Shown: one piece after another, positions 18,985 through 37,392 of the stretch
Layout: every line of letters starts with the position of its first letter
How positions within the stretch are numbered: the stretch's first letter is position 1
Source: an uncultured bacterium
GTDB taxonomy: Bacteria; Eisenbacteria; RBG-16-71-46; CAIMUX01
Length of the DNA stretch: 64,000 nucleotides
Assembly (NCBI GenBank): GCA_964636385.1
Contig: CAZWSC010000010.1
Coordinates: forward strand, 12,159 to 76,158
Reading direction: 5' to 3'
Position numbers and translations under genes: made by a program
Notes under the pieces: generated by a model
The model's database searches: none
Told to the model about the DNA's origin: nothing
The model's input: only the letters and a program-made list of their open reading frames with translations

Positions 18985-21624
18985 TCACTCATCAATGATC
19001 AGCACCCGCGGCCTCTGCACACCCACACGAAGTTCGGTCGTGCCGTCGATGTACACGGTGCGCCCCACTGCCGCTGCCAGGACTGAGGCGAACTCCTCAC
19101 TGAGGGTGTGCCGGCCGAACCCTTCCAGCACAACCACCGTGAAAGGCCATGACTCGGCGAGCAGGGGTCCGAGATCCGCACCGGCCGTGATGACGCCGCT
19201 GGCCCCCGCGTCGCGAAGATTCTGCAGACCGGCAAGGTCCAGGTGCTCCACAAGGGCGACAACGCCAGCTGAAGCGCCATCCATCCCGTCGTCAGGGCGT
19301 GTCGGCAGCCCTTCTCCCTGTGGCTGGCCTGAATAACCGCCGCCCGGACCCGATCCCGGCTCCCGATACGCCAGCCGCCCGGCCGTCTCGCCGCCTGCGC
19401 CCCAGGCACCCCTGATCACGGTGCCGGACGTCTCGATGACAGCCCCGCGACCGGTTATCTCGCACACCGTACCCGGCACCCAGGCTTTCACCTCCAGCTC
19501 CTCGCGCAGAGGCTCCACCCAGATGCGGCCCTCATCCGGACGGATCTGGAGGACCCTGCCGCGGATGGGAGAGAGCGCCGTACGCCCCACCGGCGGGATA
19601 CCGGTTGCAGCCAGAACAGACCCTGCTTCCACCTCCTGCCCTTCCCCGCAACGGAGGAAAGGCGCCAGTTTTCCTGCGTCGACCTTCAGGGCGGCGGCGG
19701 CATCTACAACACAGACGTGCCGGGCCTGGGCGGGAGTCTCTCTGGCCAACACTGTTCCGTCGGCGAGTAGCCTGTCGAAGATGCCGCCTACCTGGCAGCG
19801 GAACTCCTTCGTCCTGAGCATCCCCTTCCGCCTTGCCAGCAGATCGCCCGGTGCGAACCCGTCCCCAGGCCCCATCAGAAGATGCTGCCCGGTCTCCTCC
19901 GGCCTGCAGTCGAGCACCTGCGCAACCGGCAGGAAGAACGGGCGGAGGAAAAGCCGTGTGCTCCGGGCTATAAGTGTGTCGCCTTCCACGGTGCCCCCCT
20001 TGTGGACAAGGACATCCCCGGGAATCGACAGCTCGCGCTCCAGGATGATCCTTCCGCGCCGGACCGGGTCCTCGGCAGACGCCGGAATCCTGGATGCAGC
20101 ACCCGGCACGGCTGCCCTCGCCGTCGACCCACGGTGATCCTGCGCCCTGCCCAGCCGCACTATCCCGACACGGTTGAAGAGCTCGAAGGCCAGATCAGGA
20201 TCCTGTGCGGAGAGCATCCCCAGGTGCGGAAAGATGAAGGCGCTGTCCACAGCGAGCTGCGTCCTGCGTGAAGTCTGAACGGCATCGGTCAGGATTCGGG
20301 CTGCGACGTCGCGGGGCACGTGTGAAAGTGCACCGCCGCTCCCGATGATGAGATCGTACCTGTCCGCGTTGACCACACCGGGCTCCGTGCGCGCCTCTCT
20401 CTGCCGGTCCCTCAGATGCGAGCGGATCCGAAAGGCATCCGCGCCCCTGTCATCCGACTTCCCGCCCAGCACGCGCAGGTGCGCGCGCACCGCCTCGCGC
20501 ACAGCCAGGGTTGCGATGCCCCGCTCGATTCCGGCATCAACCTCGTCCCCGGGGAGCCGCGTGGGATTGAGATACTTCTCCCCCACGCGGTTGAGCACGT
20601 CGCCTGCGTGATCCCGTGCCGGATGCGCCCCGCCCCGGGAGTCCCGCCCCTTGTCCAGCAACTCCAGCAGTGCATCCAGCCCGGCGGAGAGCAGCACGTT
20701 CAGGATGCTGTAGCTCATGCCCAGGTTCGCGCTGACCGTGCGCACGACCCTGCCTTCGTGCGCCGTGAAGACGTCGGTCGTGGCCCCTCCCACATCCACG
20801 GCGAGGATCCGCTCTCCCGTCTTCTCCGACACAAGCCCAAGTATCCTGCCGACCGCCGACGGAGTGGGCAGGAGCGGCCCGTCCACCCAGTCGCGCAACC
20901 GTTCGTAACCGGGGGCCTGCGACATTACGTGCTCCATGAAGAGCTCGTGGATCGCCTCCCGAGCGGGGCCCAGCCGCTCCTGTCCCGCCTCGGGGCGGAG
21001 GTTGTCGACCGCACGCAGCATAAAGCGGTCTTTCACAGCAGCCTCGACATAAGGCAGTGCTTTCCTGTTGCCGGCGAAGATGACAGGAAGCCGGGCACGG
21101 GGGTTCCGCTTGGGATGCAGCGAGGCTTCGTTCATGATCTCGGCAAGGAAGACCGGCCCGGAGATCGCGTCGCCATCGAATCCGCCGGCAAGCAGGACCA
21201 TGTCGGGACGGAGCCGCTCGAGATCCCGGATCTTCTGATATGGCGTGCGCCCGTCGTCCAGGGCCAGCACATCCAGCACGATCGCGCCGGCACCGAGGGC
21301 AACCCTCTCTGCGCTCTGCGAGGTGATGGAACGTACCAGGCCGGTCACGACGACGGCAAGGCCACCGCCCGCGCTGGAGGTAGAGAGGTAGGTCACTGCC
21401 GGGCGGCCGTCCCGTGTCAGGGGCGTGCCGACTTCATCCCTGAAGGCATCCAGCGCCCGTAGAACGCCGAGCGTCACGTCCTCGTCCGGCTTCTCCACCG
21501 TCGTGGCGGCCTCGTGCCGCAGACAGCGCCACCCTCCATCCCCGCCATCCCGGAGGAAGAGAACCGCCTTCGTTGTCGTGCTTCCTACGTCGGTTATGCA
21601 GATCAGGGGGTCATTGCAGCCCAT
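18985..21624 (-). CDS. GlmL/MutL-like ASKHA ATPase fused to a C-terminal barrel-sandwich-like domain
   Basis: DVGSTTTKA, SSAGGGL, LLAGGFDG, PTP, VDVGGATTDV, RTVSANLGMSYS, IIGSGG; an additional C-terminal region of roughly 350 aa. Confidence 0.75.
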   Translation of the reverse strand: MGCNDPLICITDVGSTTTKAVLFLRDGGDGGWRCLRHEAATTVEKPDEDVTLGVLRALDAFRDEVGTPLTRDGRPAVTYLSTSSAGGGLAVVVTGLVRSITSQSAERVALGAGAIVLDVLALDDGRTPYQKIRDLERLRPDMVLLAGGFDGDAISGPVFLAEIMNEASLHPKRNPRARLPVIFAGNRKALPYVEAAVKDRFMLRAVDNLRPEAGQERLGPAREAIHELFMEHVMSQAPGYERLRDWVDGPLLPTPSAVGRILGLVSEKTGERILAVDVGGATTDVFTAHEGRVVRTVSANLGMSYSILNVLLSAGLDALLELLDKGRDSRGGAHPARDHAGDVLNRVGEKYLNPTRLPGDEVDAGIERGIATLAVREAVRAHLRVLGGKSDDRGADAFRIRSHLRDRQREARTEPGVVNADRYDLIIGSGGALSHVPRDVAARILTDAVQTSRRTQLAVDSAFIFPHLGMLSAQDPDLAFELFNRVGIVRLGRAQDHRGSTARAAVPGAASRIPASAEDPVRRGRIILERELSIPGDVLVHKGGTVEGDTLIARSTRLFLRPFFLPVAQVLDCRPEETGQHLLMGPGDGFAPGDLLARRKGMLRTKEFRCQVGGIFDRLLADGTVLARETPAQARHVCVVDAAAALKVDAGKLAPFLRCGEGQEVEAGSVLAATGIPPVGRTALSPIRGRVLQIRPDEGRIWVEPLREELEVKAWVPGTVCEITGRGAVIETSGTVIRGAWGAGGETAGRLAYREPGSGPGGGYSGQPQGEGLPTRPDDGMDGASAGVVALVEHLDLAGLQNLRDAGASGVITAGADLGPLLAESWPFTVVVLEGFGRHTLSEEFASVLAAAVGRTVYIDGTTELRVGVQRPRVLIIDE

Positions 21625-29006: not shown

Positions 29007-29034
29007 TTGAAAGATCCGGCGCATCGGGTACAAT
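29007..29034 (+). promoter_or_regulatory. sigma70-type promoter for glnA-gatE-gatD
   Basis: TTGAAA-N16-TACAAT. Confidence 0.5.
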
Positions 29035-29091: not shown

Positions 29092-30555
29092 ATGCCGACA
29101 ACCGGCCGCAATTCCGCCATGAACGACCCCATCTCCGGGCTGTACCAGATGGCCGACAGACACGAGGTCCAGATGGTTGACCTGAAGTTCTGCGGACTGC
29201 TCGGCCGCTGGCACCACGTTACGCTGCCGGCCTCCAGGCTCGAGCCTGACCTCTTCAAGTACGGGATGCCGTTCGACGGCTCCAGCGTCAAGGGGTTCAA
29301 GCACACCGAGTCGAGCGACATGATCATGATCCCGGACCCGTCCACCGCATTGCTGGACCCGTTCTGGGAAGTTCCGACCATCTCCATCCGCTGCGAGCTG
29401 CGCGACGGCCGCACGGGCAACCCGATCACACGGGACCCCGTCTCCATCGCCAGGCGCGCGGAGGAGTACCTGAAGTCGCTCGGATTCGCCGACAGGGCGA
29501 TGATGGGCCCCGAGTATGAGTTCTACATCTTCGACTCGGTGCGCCACCAGTGCGATACCAACTTCGCGTTCCACAACTTCGATTCGGTCTCCGGCGAGTG
29601 GAACACGGGAAGCGAGCGTGAGGCGCACGACCTCCCCGTCCTCGGCATGCCGATCAAGGGGGGATACCACGCCATCCCGCCCAGGGATCGTCTGTACAAC
29701 CTGCGCAGCGATATGGTGCAGCTGATCGAGACCTCCGGCATCCCGGTCAAGTACCACCATCACGAAGGCGGCGGCGCCGGCCAGTCGGAGATCGAGGTGC
29801 TCCTCCAGCCGCTGAGCATCGCGGCCGATCACGCAATGATCATCAAGTACATCGTGCGCAACGTGGCCGACCGGGCGGGCAAGGTGGCCACCTTCATGCC
29901 CAAGCCGCTGTACAACGCCCCGGGCAGCGGCATGCACGTCCACCAGCACCTCTTCATGGGCGACAAGCCGCTCTTCTGGGACGACAACGGGTACGCCAAC
30001 CTTAGCGAGATTGCGCTTCACTACATCGGCGGCCTTCTCGAGCACGCTCCCGCGCTTCTCGCCCTCACAAATCCGAGCACGAACAGCTACAAGCGTCTCG
30101 TACCCGGATTCGAGGCGCCGGTCCATGTGATCTTCGGCCTTGCGAACCGGACGGCGGCGGTCCGCATCCCCGACGACGGGCGGACACCGGAATCAAGGAG
30201 GATCGAGTTCCGGCCCGGAGATGCCACCGGGAACATCTACCTGATGCTGTCGGCGATGCTGATGGCCGGGCTGGACGGCATCCAGAGGAAGATCGACCCG
30301 CGCGAGGAGGGGTTCGGGCCGTTCGACCGCCCGATCGGCGAAGCATCCGAGAGCGATCGCAAGCGGATCCGCACTCTGCCGCTGGATCTCGACTCGGCTC
30401 TCGACGCCCTCGAAAAGGACCACCTGTTCCTGCTGGAAGGCGGGGTTTTCGACGAACCGACCCTGCGGACATGGATCGACCTGAAGCGGCGTGACGTCCT
30501 GGACGTCCGGAACCGGCCGCATCCCCGCGAGACGGCCCTCTACCTTGATGTCTGA
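29092..30555 (+). CDS. glnA: Glutamine synthetase type I
   Basis: FDGSS, GPEYEF, HHHE, TFMPKP, GSGMHVHQ, NSYKRLVPGFEAP, NRTAAVRIP, RIEFR. Confidence 0.95.
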   Translation: MPTTGRNSAMNDPISGLYQMADRHEVQMVDLKFCGLLGRWHHVTLPASRLEPDLFKYGMPFDGSSVKGFKHTESSDMIMIPDPSTALLDPFWEVPTISIRCELRDGRTGNPITRDPVSIARRAEEYLKSLGFADRAMMGPEYEFYIFDSVRHQCDTNFAFHNFDSVSGEWNTGSEREAHDLPVLGMPIKGGYHAIPPRDRLYNLRSDMVQLIETSGIPVKYHHHEGGGAGQSEIEVLLQPLSIAADHAMIIKYIVRNVADRAGKVATFMPKPLYNAPGSGMHVHQHLFMGDKPLFWDDNGYANLSEIALHYIGGLLEHAPALLALTNPSTNSYKRLVPGFEAPVHVIFGLANRTAAVRIPDDGRTPESRRIEFRPGDATGNIYLMLSAMLMAGLDGIQRKIDPREEGFGPFDRPIGEASESDRKRIRTLPLDLDSALDALEKDHLFLLEGGVFDEPTLRTWIDLKRRDVLDVRNRPHPRETALYLDV

Positions 30556-30568
30556 TCGGGAGGAACGA

Positions 30569-32788
30569 ATGGCCTTGCACAAGGGCGGGATTCTGGATCG
30601 ATCGCTCTATGACGGGAAGCTGCGGAAGCCGGAGTTCTACGAGAGGATCGGCTTCCGGTGCGGACTGGAGGTGCACCAGCAGCTCCTGACCGAACGCAAG
30701 CTCTTCTGTCACTGTCCGGCGCGCCTCTACTCCGAGGACCATGACGCAGCGGTCTTCCGACATATGCGCCCCACGCTTTCGGAGCTGGGCGAGTACGACG
30801 GTACGGCACTCATGGAGTTCAAGACGCGCAAGGAGGTCCTTTACCTCCTGGACTCCTGCTCGGTCTGCACCTACGAAATGGACGACACCCCGCCGTTCGA
30901 GCCCAATCCCGAGGCGATCACCATCGCCGTCGAGATCGCTCTCCTCCTGGGATGCCGGACCGTCGGAGAGGTGCACGTCAGCCGCAAACAGTACCTTGAC
31001 GGATCCATCCCCACGGGATTCCAGCGCACGGCCATCATCGGCGTCGAGGGGTCGATCCCCTTCGGGGGGCGCGATATCGGGATCTACCAGCTCGCCCTCG
31101 AGGAGGACTCCTGCCGGGAGGTGGAGGATATCGGGCACCGGATCACATTCCGGACGGACCGGCTCTCTATGCCGCTGGTGGAGGTGGTCACGAAGCCCGG
31201 GATTCTGAACCCGATGGAGGCCGAGCTGGTTGGCCGCCAGATCGGCCGGCTGCTCCGCTGCACAGGCCATGTGCGAAGGGGTATCGGAAGCGTCAGGCAG
31301 GATGTGAATGTGAGTATTGAAGGCGGAACCAGGATCGAGATCAAGGGCGTTCCCCGCCTCCCACTCTTCCCTTCACTTACACACAACGAGGCGCTGAGGC
31401 AGGCGGGGCTGCTGGCGATCCGCGACTGGCTGCACGGGCAGGGGATCACGGCCGAAAACCTCGAGGGTCCTTCGGCGGATGTGACGGAGTTGCTGGCGCA
31501 GACCACCTGCCCGGGAATCCTCCGCGCCCTGGAGGAAGGGCACCACGTCCGGGCAATGGCCCTGCGGGGGTTCCAGCCGGCCCTTCTCGAGGAGATCCAG
31601 CCCGGCATCCGCTTCGCCCAGGAGTTCAGCGGGCGCATCCGTGTGATCGCCTGCCTAGACCAGTCCTCCAACCTCTTCATCCGCGGGGATGACCTCGGCC
31701 TTGGGCTGCACAGGCACCACCGCGTCCGCAGGGCCGGGCAGGATGCGGACTGCGGGGTTGAGCAGTCGCTGCTGCCGGGGCTGGAGCCTGCATTCGCGGA
31801 GCAGCAGCCTGTGATGCAGGATCCGGAGCACGGCCCGACACCGGCCGAGTGGGCAGTCGTCGCAGCGGAGCTGAAGGCCGGACCCGAAGACGGCATCCTG
31901 ATCTTCTTCGGTCCCGAAAGGGATGTCGTCACTGCGGAGGCGGAGATCCTGATCAGGGCAAGGGAGGCGCTGGAAGGGATCCCGAACGAGACGCGGCAAC
32001 CTTTCCCCTCGGGGACGACCGATTTCGAGCGGATCCTCCCCGGGCCCGACAGGATGTACCCCGACACCGATCTGCCGCCAATCGCCCTCCGCGAAGAGCT
32101 TGTACAGGGGATCGCGGCCAACCTGCCCGAACTCCCCTGGAAGCGTGCAGGGCGGTACGCGGCGATGGGGCTCGGCCCTGTTGCGGTTGATCAGCTGGTG
32201 GACGGCCCGTTCTCCGATGCGTTCGACCAGGCTGTTGCGCAGACCGGCCTGGATCCGAAGTCCGGCCACAGGCTCTTTGCCTGCGAAGCCCCCGCAGCGA
32301 TGCGTCGGGGTCACGCAGTAGCCGCCATACCCGAGGCGGTGTGGATGGAGCTGGCGGGGAGATGGGCCGCGGGCGGCTTCTACAGGGAGGCGCTCCCCAC
32401 CCTTCTGCCGAAGCTTGCCGCGGAGTGTGCGGCCACTCCCTCAGGAAACGGCGGCGATGCCAGTCCTGATCCGAATCCCGGCCCGGATGCGGAAGTGGCC
32501 CGCGCTGTACTGCACAGGGCCCTGCAGGAGCTGGGGCTCAACGCCGGCGTCCCTGAGTCCGATCTCATCGCGAAGGCAGGGAAGACCGCGGCTGCGGAAG
32601 CACCTGCGCTCTGCGTGCGGATCCGCAGGGGCGACAGGCAGGCGAAGTGTGAGAGAGCCCTCACGGGCGTGCTGCGCGCGAAGTATGGCGGCCTCATCGC
32701 CGGCCGTGAACTGAGGAGGATAGCCACAGACGCCGTCTCGGCCGCATTCGCGAAGAACCGGGCCGGCAGGGAAAGGAGCAAGGCGTGA
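30569..32788 (+). CDS. gatE: Glu-tRNA(Gln) amidotransferase subunit E
   Basis: GLEVHQQL, KLFC, RPTLSELGEYD, DGS.PTGFQRT, LEEDS, RRGIGSVRQDVNVSI, EIKGV, AspRS-like insertion, ETR...PG..RMYP.TD. Confidence 0.93.
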   Translation: MALHKGGILDRSLYDGKLRKPEFYERIGFRCGLEVHQQLLTERKLFCHCPARLYSEDHDAAVFRHMRPTLSELGEYDGTALMEFKTRKEVLYLLDSCSVCTYEMDDTPPFEPNPEAITIAVEIALLLGCRTVGEVHVSRKQYLDGSIPTGFQRTAIIGVEGSIPFGGRDIGIYQLALEEDSCREVEDIGHRITFRTDRLSMPLVEVVTKPGILNPMEAELVGRQIGRLLRCTGHVRRGIGSVRQDVNVSIEGGTRIEIKGVPRLPLFPSLTHNEALRQAGLLAIRDWLHGQGITAENLEGPSADVTELLAQTTCPGILRALEEGHHVRAMALRGFQPALLEEIQPGIRFAQEFSGRIRVIACLDQSSNLFIRGDDLGLGLHRHHRVRRAGQDADCGVEQSLLPGLEPAFAEQQPVMQDPEHGPTPAEWAVVAAELKAGPEDGILIFFGPERDVVTAEAEILIRAREALEGIPNETRQPFPSGTTDFERILPGPDRMYPDTDLPPIALREELVQGIAANLPELPWKRAGRYAAMGLGPVAVDQLVDGPFSDAFDQAVAQTGLDPKSGHRLFACEAPAAMRRGHAVAAIPEAVWMELAGRWAAGGFYREALPTLLPKLAAECAATPSGNGGDASPDPNPGPDAEVARAVLHRALQELGLNAGVPESDLIAKAGKTAAAEAPALCVRIRRGDRQAKCERALTGVLRAKYGGLIAGRELRRIATDAVSAAFAKNRAGRERSKA

Positions 32789-34185
32789 GCGCCCCCGTCT
32801 CCGCGGATCGTTACAAGGGGTACCGCAACCCGGTGCGCAGGCTCCTGGAGGAGTGGAACGCAGGGGTCTGGTCGGATGTCGAGGTACTGACGAGCAAGGG
32901 GGAATTCCGGGGGATCATACTCCCGCGAAGCGAGACGGCCGACGCCGAGCATCTCGTCCTGAAGCTTCACACCGGGTACAATGTCGGGCTTCACGCAGAC
33001 ACCATCCGGGAGATCCGGGAGGTCGGGTTCAAGGAGGCGCACTACAGGATCCCGGAAAAAGAGTTCCCGTTCGATCCCGCCAAGCCGAGTGTGACGCTCC
33101 TCGGCACCGGGGGGACGATCGCCTCACGCCTCGACTACAGGACAGGCGCGGTCATCCCGGCCTTCTCGCCCGGCGAACTGTACGGCGCCGTTCCCGAACT
33201 GGCCGACTACTGCAACCTGACGACGAGGAAGCTCTTCGGCGAGTTCAGCGAGAACATAGGACCGGTCCACTGGATCGCCCTCGCCGAGGCGGTGGCGGAG
33301 GAGATCCGGAAGGGCGCGACGGGGATCATCATCGGCCACGGCACCGACACCATGCACTACACATCAGCGGCCCTCTCCTTCATGGTCCAGGACTCGCCCG
33401 TGCCGATCGTGATGGTCGGCTCGCAGAGGTCCAGCGACAGGCCTTCCTCGGACGCGGCGCTCAACCTGATCCACTCCGCGAAGACGGCGGCTGAGAGCGA
33501 CATCGCCGAGGTAATGGTCTGCATGTTCGGCCCGACCAGCGACCAGTACGGCCTGCTCCACCAGGGCACGCGCGTGCGGAAGATGCACACCTCGTACCGC
33601 TCCACATTCCGCACGATCGGCGACATCCCGCTGGCCATGGTCTCGATGGACGAGATCCGTCCGATCCGCCAGGACTACCGAAAGCGCGCCAACGACAGGC
33701 AGATGAAGGTGGAGACGCGCTTCGACGACCGGATCAGCATCGTCTACTACTACCCGAACATGAAGCCGGACATCATCGACTCGCTGGTGGACAACGGGTA
33801 CCGCGGGATCGTGATCGCGGGGACGGGGCTCGGCCACGTCAACAAGCCGCTCTATCCGTCGCTTCGCCGCGCGATCCGGGAGAAGAACGTCGCGGTCTAC
33901 ATGACGCCCGAGACCCTGTGGGGCTACGTGCAGATGTACGTGTACGACACCGGCCGGGACATGATGGCCCTCGGAGTCGTTCCCTGCGCCAACATGCTGC
34001 CGGAGACCGCCTACGTGAAGCTGGGCTGGGCGCTGGGGCAGTCGCAGGACCAGGACGAGATCCGGCGGATCATGCTGGCGCCCGTTGCGAACGACATGAC
34101 CGAGCGCGAACCGCCCAACGGCTACCTTGTTCTGCAGGGCGGAATCCCCGAGGTTGACGCCTTCATGAAGTCGATCGCGAAGTAG
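32785..34185 (+). CDS. gatD: Glu-tRNA(Gln) amidotransferase subunit D
   Basis: GatD-specific N-domain (LKLHTGYNVG), TGGTIASRLDYRTG, HGTDTM, SQRSSDRPSSD, RKMHTS; GTGA overlap with gatE. Confidence 0.95.
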   Translation: MSAPVSADRYKGYRNPVRRLLEEWNAGVWSDVEVLTSKGEFRGIILPRSETADAEHLVLKLHTGYNVGLHADTIREIREVGFKEAHYRIPEKEFPFDPAKPSVTLLGTGGTIASRLDYRTGAVIPAFSPGELYGAVPELADYCNLTTRKLFGEFSENIGPVHWIALAEAVAEEIRKGATGIIIGHGTDTMHYTSAALSFMVQDSPVPIVMVGSQRSSDRPSSDAALNLIHSAKTAAESDIAEVMVCMFGPTSDQYGLLHQGTRVRKMHTSYRSTFRTIGDIPLAMVSMDEIRPIRQDYRKRANDRQMKVETRFDDRISIVYYYPNMKPDIIDSLVDNGYRGIVIAGTGLGHVNKPLYPSLRRAIREKNVAVYMTPETLWGYVQMYVYDTGRDMMALGVVPCANMLPETAYVKLGWALGQSQDQDEIRRIMLAPVANDMTEREPPNGYLVLQGGIPEVDAFMKSIAK

Positions 34186-37291: not shown

Positions 37292-37392
37292 GACCCCCGG
37301 CTCCGACTGCCCTATGCTCGCCCCGGCACCGCAGCATCCTCTGGGTTGCCGCGGAAGTGTCGGATTCACGGCAACACCCGGGAGATAGTCAG

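Follow-up and report, generated by a model that had tools for sequence, protein, structure and literature searches.

What role can the amidotransferase GatDE play in a cell that already has both glutaminyl-tRNA synthetase (GlnRS) and asparaginyl-tRNA synthetase (AsnRS)? The question is raised by a glnA-gatE-gatD operon in a 64,000-nucleotide stretch of DNA (the window) on contig CAZWSC010000010.1 of assembly GCA_964636385.1, from an uncultured bacterium of the Eisenbacteria lineage. GatDE serves as a textbook signature of the Archaea and in arguments on the amidotransferases of the last common ancestor; passages of PMC2811023 state that it is confined to archaea and passages of PMC9499178 describe it as archaea-only, in agreement with the initial annotation of the window, which had called it an archaeal signature. 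The operon exists as described and belongs to a bacterium, and the GatDE that it encodes is intact and of a subfamily that we term clade B. We tentatively read it, short of conviction, as an operon for tRNA-dependent asparagine synthesis, possibly with dual specificity, that is fed with glutamine by the only glutamine synthetase (GS) of the cell.

An Intact glnA-gatE-gatD Operon

The arrangement, identity and intactness of the three genes are directly observed (Table 1). The gatE start was placed at the ATG at 30569, behind a GGGAGGA and 13 bases downstream of the glnA TGA, which ends at 30555; the GTG start of gatD overlaps the TGA stop of gatE (GTGA, 32785 through 32788). The close spacing and the translational coupling described in the initial annotation are thus both present. 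GlnA scores 507.3 bits against TIGR00653 (cut-off 429.15) and contains PF03951 (Gln-synt_N) and PF00120 (Gln-synt_C). GatE exceeds the cut-offs of NF003107 (474.5 bits; cut-off 456) and TIGR00134 (397.1 bits; 319.55), and GatD those of NF003217 (506.5 bits; 310) and TIGR02153 (502.8 bits; 324). Pfam finds GatB_N in GatE, and GatD_N (PF18195, 45.3 bits) together with both asparaginase domains in GatD. With these equivalog cut-offs passed and the motifs kept, both proteins are full-length and genuine, as had been claimed.

Comparison with solved structures agrees with these assignments. GatE matches the GatE chains of Methanothermobacter thermautotrophicus (2D6F) and Pyrococcus abyssi (1ZQ1) at 330 and 310.7 bits, respectively, and the best solved matches of GatD are the GatD chains of P. 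abyssi (414.9 bits) and M. thermautotrophicus (396.6 bits); solved asparaginases reach at most 143.9 bits. In GatD the motifs GTGGTIAS, HGTDTM and VRKMHTS line up with those of the P. abyssi protein; we take them to contain the catalytic Thr, Asp and Lys. The asparaginase subfamily model TIGR00519 also matches GatD (372.2 bits), at a score below those of the GatD equivalogs. A plain type I asparaginase is ruled out by the equivalog scores, the N-terminal domain and the coupled gatE. GatB is ruled out as the identity of GatE, since the best GatB models score 117.9 bits (cut-off 338) and 108.6 bits (cut-off 314.8; the cut-offs of the GatB models range from 314.8 to 680) and the protein separates from the GatB outgroup with 100% support. 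Nesting of the proteins within the GatB or plain asparaginase families, a concern raised at the outset, was not seen.

The single promoter-like site in 28600 through 34600 lies 58 bases 5' of the glnA ATG; shuffled sequences average 0.7 such sites. No terminator-like site was found in 28600 through 34600, no promoter-like site inside the operon, and no Rfam match (E ≤ 1) in 27000 through 36000. With neither kind of site inside the operon, a single transcription unit fits, without being proven, and is the most likely arrangement predicted from the sequence.

Table 1. Features of the glnA-gatE-gatD operon (window positions)
Feature	Description	Positions	Strand	Open frame	Basis
glnA	type I glutamine synthetase, 487 amino acids	29092..30555	+	29092-30555	TIGR00653, Gln-synt_N, Gln-synt_C
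gatE	clade B, 739 amino acids plus stop	30569..32788	+	30491-32788	NCBIfam equivalogs, GatB_N
gatD	glutaminase subunit, 466 amino acids, GTG start	32785..34185	+	32785-34185	NCBIfam equivalogs, GatD_N, asparaginase domains
Promoter-like site	sigma-70-like, TTGAAA-16-TACAAT (10/12)	29007..29034	+		consensus match only

A Genome with GlnRS and AsnRS in Which No Asparagine Synthetase Was Found

The organism's own genome encodes GlnRS (730.9 bits), AsnRS (633.6 bits), one glutamyl-tRNA synthetase (GluRS) and one aspartyl-tRNA synthetase (AspRS) of bacterial type; a second class II match, on contig C48, reaches 61.8 bits with the AsnRS model and 90 bits with the AspRS model. GatA gave no match in this genome, and the sole responder to the GatB model is GatE itself. 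The glnA of the operon is the only GS-family gene in a whole-genome search with PF00120. In this genome, which is 99.75% complete and not closed, the AsnB model TIGR01536 yields just 62 and 52 bits, over the N-terminal glutaminase part; AsnA has no match; and PF00733 finds fragments only (26 and 24 bits, profile positions 20 through 82). The tRNAGln (CUG and UUG) and tRNAAsn (GUU) all have U1:A72, and tRNAGlu and tRNAAsp begin with G1. Because GlnRS is present, GatDE is unneeded for Gln-tRNAGln. The initial annotation had cast the operon as one for tRNA-dependent glutamine synthesis and had proposed a check for glnS, gatCAB and tRNAGln; with glnS present here, GlnRS in most relatives (see below), gatCAB absent and tRNAGln of the bacterial U1:A72 type, such a route is not required.

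ARAGORN reports 39 tRNAs in this genome, including a tRNA-SeC (TCA), so the organism may use selenocysteine.

Gene content was compared across 40 genomes of relatives from the same class; relatives are non-independent samples, and the counts are not statistical tests. GlnRS is found in 36 of the 40 and AsnRS in 39, from which direct charging appears ancestral in the class and the organism's own GlnRS is no contaminant. GatB occurs in 20 and GatE in 9. Within the organism's family (n = 12) GatB is present in seven genomes, GatE in three plus the own genome, neither in two, and both in none; there, GatCAB and GatDE take each other's place. In each of the 14 class genomes that lack both amidotransferases, AsnB (12 genomes) or AsnA (2) is present. 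Conversely, the genomes that lack both AsnB (E ≤ 1e-40) and AsnA (the own genome, G000, with G052, G066, G074 and G081) all have an amidotransferase, which in four of the five is GatE. Outside the class, G005 (a closed Gemmatimonadota chromosome), G017, G018, G019 and G034 combine GatE, GlnRS and AsnRS and lack GatB, AsnB and AsnA.

GatCAB makes asparagine on tRNAAsn in Thermus and Deinococcus. The gene content found here, GlnRS and AsnRS with an amidotransferase and without AsnA or AsnB, is that of the asparagine route of Thermus, Deinococcus and Bdellovibrio, and in control genomes of Thermus and Deinococcus GatB, GlnRS and AsnRS respond to the models and AsnB and AsnA do not. The abstract of PMC4206432 gives the same gene pattern for Thermus and Deinococcus. 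Two differences stand out: the amidotransferase here would be GatDE, for which, in contrast to GatCAB, no activity on Asp-tRNAAsn has been demonstrated (passages of PMC2811023), and the genome has no second, archaeal-type AspRS.

Clade B GatE Is Distinct from the Structurally Solved Enzymes

A quick IQ-TREE tree (81 rows, 641 columns, LG+C20 PMSF, five GatB rows as outgroup) divides GatE into two subfamilies. Open reading frames (ORFs) longer than 800 residues were trimmed to their last 720, and 49 of the 130 rows of a FastTree tree were left out, among them L144, on a long branch (1.43), and L138_GatB, for which the wrong ORF had been picked (branch 6.35); FastTree on all 130 rows gave the same outline. 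Clade A consists of 16 archaeal rows (Shimodaira-Hasegawa-like approximate likelihood ratio test [SH-aLRT] 95). Clade B comprises 60 rows (SH-aLRT 99, branch 0.55). Nine of them are archaeal and fall into three groups; the other 51 are all the bacterial rows sampled and form one group (SH-aLRT 91) on a short branch of 0.039. The initial annotation had taken the window GatE for a member of a distinct bacterial clade; the clade is distinct, but it is not purely bacterial, as the nine archaeal rows share its signature.

Twenty-three columns tell clade A from clade B. The catalytic motif reads RKQY.DGSIP in 51 of 51 bacterial and 9 of 9 archaeal clade B rows and RK[I]V.DGSNT in clade A; the variant motif that had been noted in the window GatE, SRKQYLDGSIPTGFQRT, is present and proves to be the signature of the whole subfamily. 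At Tyr142 and Pro148 of this motif clade B agrees with GatB and not with clade A, and it carries Gln141 in place of the Asn of GatB. The two GatE proteins with solved structures show the clade A form of the motif (RKIVIDGSNV and RKQVIDGSNT), and the clade B subfamily has no solved structure. Each of the 73 positions conserved in clade A and in archaeal and bacterial clade B alike is kept in the window GatE. Relative to the solved archaeal GatDE (2D6F and 1ZQ1), the window pair thus has the same two subunits in the same adjacency, with conserved cradle residues, GatD N-domain and asparaginase motifs; it differs in the clade B motif, a relaxed tail motif, the link to glnA, the bacterial host and the presence of GlnRS alongside.

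Two regions bear on the tRNA substrate. The loop V-[KR]-R-G-x-G-x-x-R-Q-D, short and positively charged, does not differ between clades A and B; a passage of Nakamura et al. (PMC2811023) places the corresponding GatE loop beside the first base pair. Bacterial GatB shares the cradle fold and many universal residues with GatE, but its 3-10 turn that reads U1-A72 is missing in the window GatE, which has the short GatE-type loop instead, and its glutaminase partner is the amidase GatA with GatC rather than the asparaginase-like GatD. In passages of PMC9499178 archaeal GatDE is said to read A1:U72 of tRNAGln, which the U1:A72 tRNAGln of this host do not have; A1:U72 tRNAGln and a GlnRS-less host are traits of the known archaeal system and not of the GatE family model. 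The second region is the tail, where the clade A motif RG[KR]xDG is found in 14 of 15 rows and its Asp in 6 of 51 bacterial clade B rows. A tail motif of GatE is implicated in distinguishing Glu-tRNAGln from Asp-tRNAAsn in a passage of Nakamura et al. (PMC2811023), who cite a GXXAXGX tail motif from Sheppard and Soll (2008).

The C-terminal 225 residues of the window GatE, where GatE proteins have their helical and YqeY-like tail domains, match neither PF02637 nor any other Pfam family (E ≤ 10), but a profile of the C-termini of its relatives covers them (profile positions 1 through 195 of 200, 121.7 bits), and this part carries a 24-residue low-complexity insert. The 277-position GatB_N profile is stretched over residues 57 through 538 of the gatE ORF, which points to an insert within the GatE cradle, where GatE proteins have an AspRS-like insertion domain; Pfam assigns no family to residues 278 through 514, PF02938 being recorded only for some relatives.

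The end branch of the window GatE is long (0.9). Within the organism's own family, the copies of GatE are not monophyletic but scattered across the bacterial group; the window GatE is 43 to 47% identical to these copies, compared with 60 to 66% for GluRS and its relatives. On this evidence horizontal spread appears to fit the own-family GatE better than vertical descent. The gene is also patchy, and the description of it as long-resident in the initial annotation does not hold.

In the phylum to which one metagenome-assembled genome (MAG) with an archaeal title belongs, 41 genomes were sampled, and 38 of them had GatE, of two kinds. Three archaeal genomes have both a clade A and a clade B GatE (G008, at C37:2460-4367 and C207:439-2307; G098, loci L118 and L142; G120, loci L131 and L143), which may be either an unrecognized paralogy of archaeal GatDE or the product of mis-binned contigs. 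In another case the GatE of a Vicinamibacterales-titled MAG (L088) is nearly identical to L099 (G066:C10:53608-57690; branches 0.11), and G066 belongs to the same order as the window genome, whose GroEL points to Candidatus Eisenbacteria; the MAG may be mislabeled, or the gene may have been transferred recently.

GatDE Is Widespread in Bacteria

A protein search with the window protein returned 8000 matches, the best at 42 to 57% identity and one, a full-length relative, at 85%; the NCBI names among the matches belong to bacterial MAGs. When one genome of each species was scanned, at least 579 stretches that encode GatDE relatives came to light. For the best 80 of these at least 579 the record titles, taken as deposited (some may be wrong), name 74 Bacteria, two archaea and four bacterial candidate divisions without a mapped domain; the phyla include Planctomycetota, Myxococcota, Bacteroidota, Krumholzibacteriota, Ignavibacteriota, Acidobacteriota, Calditrichota and others. 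Three gatE loci lie on closed bacterial chromosomes (L022, L030 and L068). The two genes are adjacent in most of the best 80 loci, and across relatives identity to the window proteins is 61 to 74% for GatD and 42 to 52% for GatE. In the literature searched, judged by titles and abstract openings, we found no account of bacterial GatDE. Bacterial GatDE is therefore not rare; it is widespread and apparently unreported, and with hundreds of bacterial species from many phyla carrying intact GatDE, the premise that the enzyme belongs to archaea only falls.

GS Is the Only Recurring Neighbor of gatED

Among the 80 loci a GS-family gene is the only recurring neighbor of gatED (16 loci), and in 11 a close glnA lies directly upstream of gatE, so the coupling of GS to the amidotransferase that the initial annotation had put forward recurs well beyond the window. 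Five of the 11 glnA-linked loci are in the IQ-TREE tree, and all five belong to a single GatE clade of Krumholzibacteriota/Latescibacterota type, apart from the window copy. This placement suggests more than one origin for the linkage of GS and gatED. The linkage suits an enzyme that depends on glutamine and is silent on which tRNA is amidated. Genes for aminoacyl-tRNA synthetases or tRNAs are not conserved as neighbors of gatE in the 80 loci, where glnS stands beside gatE only in L071 and L084.

Some loci depart from the common layout. In a Cytophagia-titled MAG (L020:2607-6312) the gene immediately upstream of gatE, on the same strand, is aspS, the sole such case among the 80. Four Planctomycetota-titled loci (L052, L057, L060 and L091) have near gatE a distant GS-like gene, 28 to 29% identical to the window GlnA, and two of these, L060 and L091, have a gatE open frame of 1046 to 1200 residues.

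A Proposed Route to Asparagine and Its Alternatives

In the mechanism that we favor, GS would make glutamine from its single gene, and GatD would split that glutamine and hand the ammonia to GatE. GatE would then phosphorylate and amidate the side-chain carboxyl of an acidic residue mischarged on a tRNA, the likeliest substrate being Asp-tRNAAsn, alone or with Glu-tRNAGln. The operon would in this way be the cell's asparagine route, and AsnRS would recharge free asparagine. We infer that the genes are co-transcribed, that the enzyme is active, that its tRNA substrate is as given and that the single AspRS mischarges tRNAAsn. The initial annotation had suggested, as one option, a new substrate or different identity rules for tRNAGln, and it is this part of it that we favor. 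If Asn-tRNAAsn is indeed made, the short list of asparagine routes gains a new enzyme, and many uncultured bacteria scored as asparagine auxotrophs would not be so. A wider and unlikely generalization would make clade B GatDE a third kind of Asp-specific or dual-specific tRNA-dependent amidotransferase in Bacteria, with one archaeal origin, transfer across more than 15 phyla and repeated displacement of GatCAB, which together with a co-transcribed GS would be the only asparagine source in such bacteria.

Several observations weigh against asparagine synthesis. Characterized GatDE acts on Glu-tRNAGln only, according to passages of PMC2811023. Five archaeal genomes (G094, G103, G106, G109 and G129) have clade B GatE only. 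To our knowledge archaea have no GlnRS, so that clade B must amidate Glu-tRNAGln in those five; and at each of the 23 signature columns, the catalytic motif included, archaeal clade B has the same commonest residue as bacterial clade B. A sensitive PF00733 recheck covered five of the asparagine synthetase negatives, of which three responded, with G052, G074 and G081 outside it: divergent Asn_synthase genes appeared in G066 (119.8 and 77.1 bits, and 97.2 bits), and G034 and G017 gave 52.5 and 49.7 bits, which leaves G000, G018 and perhaps G005 cleanly negative. Fifteen genomes have GatE and AsnB without GatB (G001, G002, G006, G009, G013, G016, G020, G021, G023, G027, G053, G054, G059, G064 and G067), and GatB accompanies GatE in 29 of 50 GatE genomes. 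A second GluRS in three genomes with GatE and without GatB (G019, G020 and G023) fits a glutamine route there. The own genome, at 3.2 Mb, is the smallest of its family (the others range from 4.0 to 6.4 Mb), and the organism may on that account simply be an asparagine auxotroph.

Nor do residue markers in the synthetases decide the matter. Among solved structures the own AspRS matches best the Asp/Asn ligase of P. aeruginosa (4WJ3, 609.7 bits; E. coli, 564.5), and it has His at the H31 position of 4WJ3, whose meaning as a marker was reportedly set out by Bernard and colleagues in 2006. As a sign of non-discrimination this marker (His31 and Gly82 of P. aeruginosa) failed its own control: the equivalent of His31 is present in 10 of 12 AspRS rows from amidotransferase-free relatives, and Leu stands in its place in four of eight genomes expected to have the non-discriminating form. 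The marker does not tell genomes with an amidotransferase from those without, so nothing in it marks the own AspRS as non-discriminating. The own GluRS is closest to that of T. thermophilus (1J09, 437.9 bits) and has Arg at the Arg358 position, which is said to mark discrimination (reportedly Sekine and colleagues, 2001). This marker too is uninformative, as all seven genomes with a single GluRS and no GlnRS, which must mischarge, have Arg (G007, G026, G032, G035, G040 and G086) or Lys (G011); four alignment rows that look like wrong-frame translations (G054a, G063, G069 and G022b) were unused. The own GluRS is 63.1% identical to that of G056, a relative with GlnRS and without an amidotransferase, whose GluRS must therefore discriminate.

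Among the alternatives, a function that is canonical only is nearly as likely as asparagine synthesis: GatDE would amidate Glu-tRNAGln as a second or clean-up route beside GlnRS, with glutamine from the co-transcribed GS and asparagine taken from outside. The equivalog-level matches of both subunits, the 73 retained universal positions, the first-base-pair loop shared by clades A and B, the five sampled archaeal genomes in which clade B is the sole GatE and serves glutamine, and the second GluRS in the three genomes above and in 8 of the 14 genomes with GatE, GatB and GlnRS all speak for it. It has to contend with the GlnRS of this genome and of 36 of its 40 relatives, with a single GluRS that, being so similar to the discriminating one of G056, would leave little substrate, and with two tRNAGln that carry U1:A72 and not the A1:U72 read by archaeal GatDE; the missing asparagine synthetase is also left unexplained. 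More improbable is a changed function, in which the enzyme would act on another acyl carrier or a small molecule, or mainly as a glutaminase or asparaginase in nitrogen metabolism beside GS. Here the 50 GatE genomes are relevant: 47 have GlnRS and/or GatB over the cut-off (both in 13, GatB alone in 16, GlnRS alone in 18), the other three being MAGs, one titled as an archaeon, one with a GatB fragment and one of 2.4 Mb, and GatDE in bacteria is never clearly the sole route to Gln-tRNAGln. A tail too diverged for Pfam and a GatD far more conserved than GatE lean the same way, but the whole tRNA-binding architecture appears to be kept, with every universal cradle residue, gatE and gatD are adjacent in most loci, and no other conserved neighbor hints at a different pathway.

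That the genes are recently transferred passengers, decaying or unused, is less probable again. The patchy occurrence (9 of 40 relatives), the non-monophyletic copies in the family, the long end branch and the extra low-complexity inserts would suit such an origin; open frames with a ribosome-binding site and a stop/start overlap, third-position GC content (GC3; 0.81 to 0.91) that matches the genome, retention of all universal residues and the full-length relative at 85% identity elsewhere would not. An assembly or binning artefact, in which an archaeal piece was joined to or binned with a bacterial genome, is close to refuted. The assembly is in 118 contigs with 1.83% contamination, and contigs of two sequencing runs stop inside the 3' end of gatD; yet single contigs of these runs cross the upstream border at even depth (see below), the composition is even, the window GatE lies within the bacterial group of the tree, and gatE is found in relatives of the same family and order and on closed bacterial chromosomes.

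One further candidate was dropped: G020, a Caldithrix-titled MAG that seemed to have GatDE without AsnRS or GatB. Of 26 genomes in its order, 21 have AsnRS over the cut-off, and the gap in G020 is probably incompleteness.

In several GatE genomes glnS adjoins gltX (G006:C51:28778-31428, G009:C17:16324-18980, G001:C138:496-2985, G066:C2, G081:C57 and G064:C29). The GluRS match begins at model position 143 in G006, G009, G035 and G040, and in G001 a GluRS-like piece and GlnRS share one 989-residue open frame.

Genomic Setting of the Operon

The surroundings of the operon are bacterial, as the initial annotation had held. Many GroELs listed by NCBI under the name Candidatus Eisenbacteria bacterium share 79 to 81% identity with the window GroEL, and positions 37357 through 38778 hold a Poly_export/SLBB gene. 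There is no shift in GC content, again in line with that annotation: it is 0.636 to 0.662 over 28 to 34 kb, within the 0.597 to 0.699 of the whole window, and the GC3 of glnA, gatE and gatD is similar to that of neighboring genes.

A chimeric contig, which the initial annotation had named as a risk at the operon borders, is very unlikely. Logan contigs of two runs, which may themselves be the source of the window DNA, span 26500 through 33217 and 27100 through 33917 and so bridge the upstream border into gatD. Depth on them is 8 to 10x throughout and even on both sides of the place where the contigs of both runs stop, a 118-base, two-variant bubble in the 3' end of gatD. With gatE also present in nine of the 40 relatives, there is no sign of a chimera. 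The 118-base alternative contig there differs by four linked changes of one base each (G>C, C>T, C>A and A>C; window positions 33918 through 33975). These changes have roughly half the depth in both runs, and this suggests that two strains co-exist.

The neighbors of the operon (FGE-sulfatase-like, radical SAM, Poly_export and glycosyltransferase genes) are functionally unrelated to it. The minus-strand ORFs that flank it (25713 through 28833 and 34192 through 35445; 622, 405 and 417 amino acids) have no Pfam match at E ≤ 1e-5. Farther upstream, positions 18985 through 25704 of the minus strand encode a MutL-like PF13941 protein (879 amino acids), two FGE-sulfatase-domain proteins and a radical SAM protein, possibly a cluster for peptide or protein modification.

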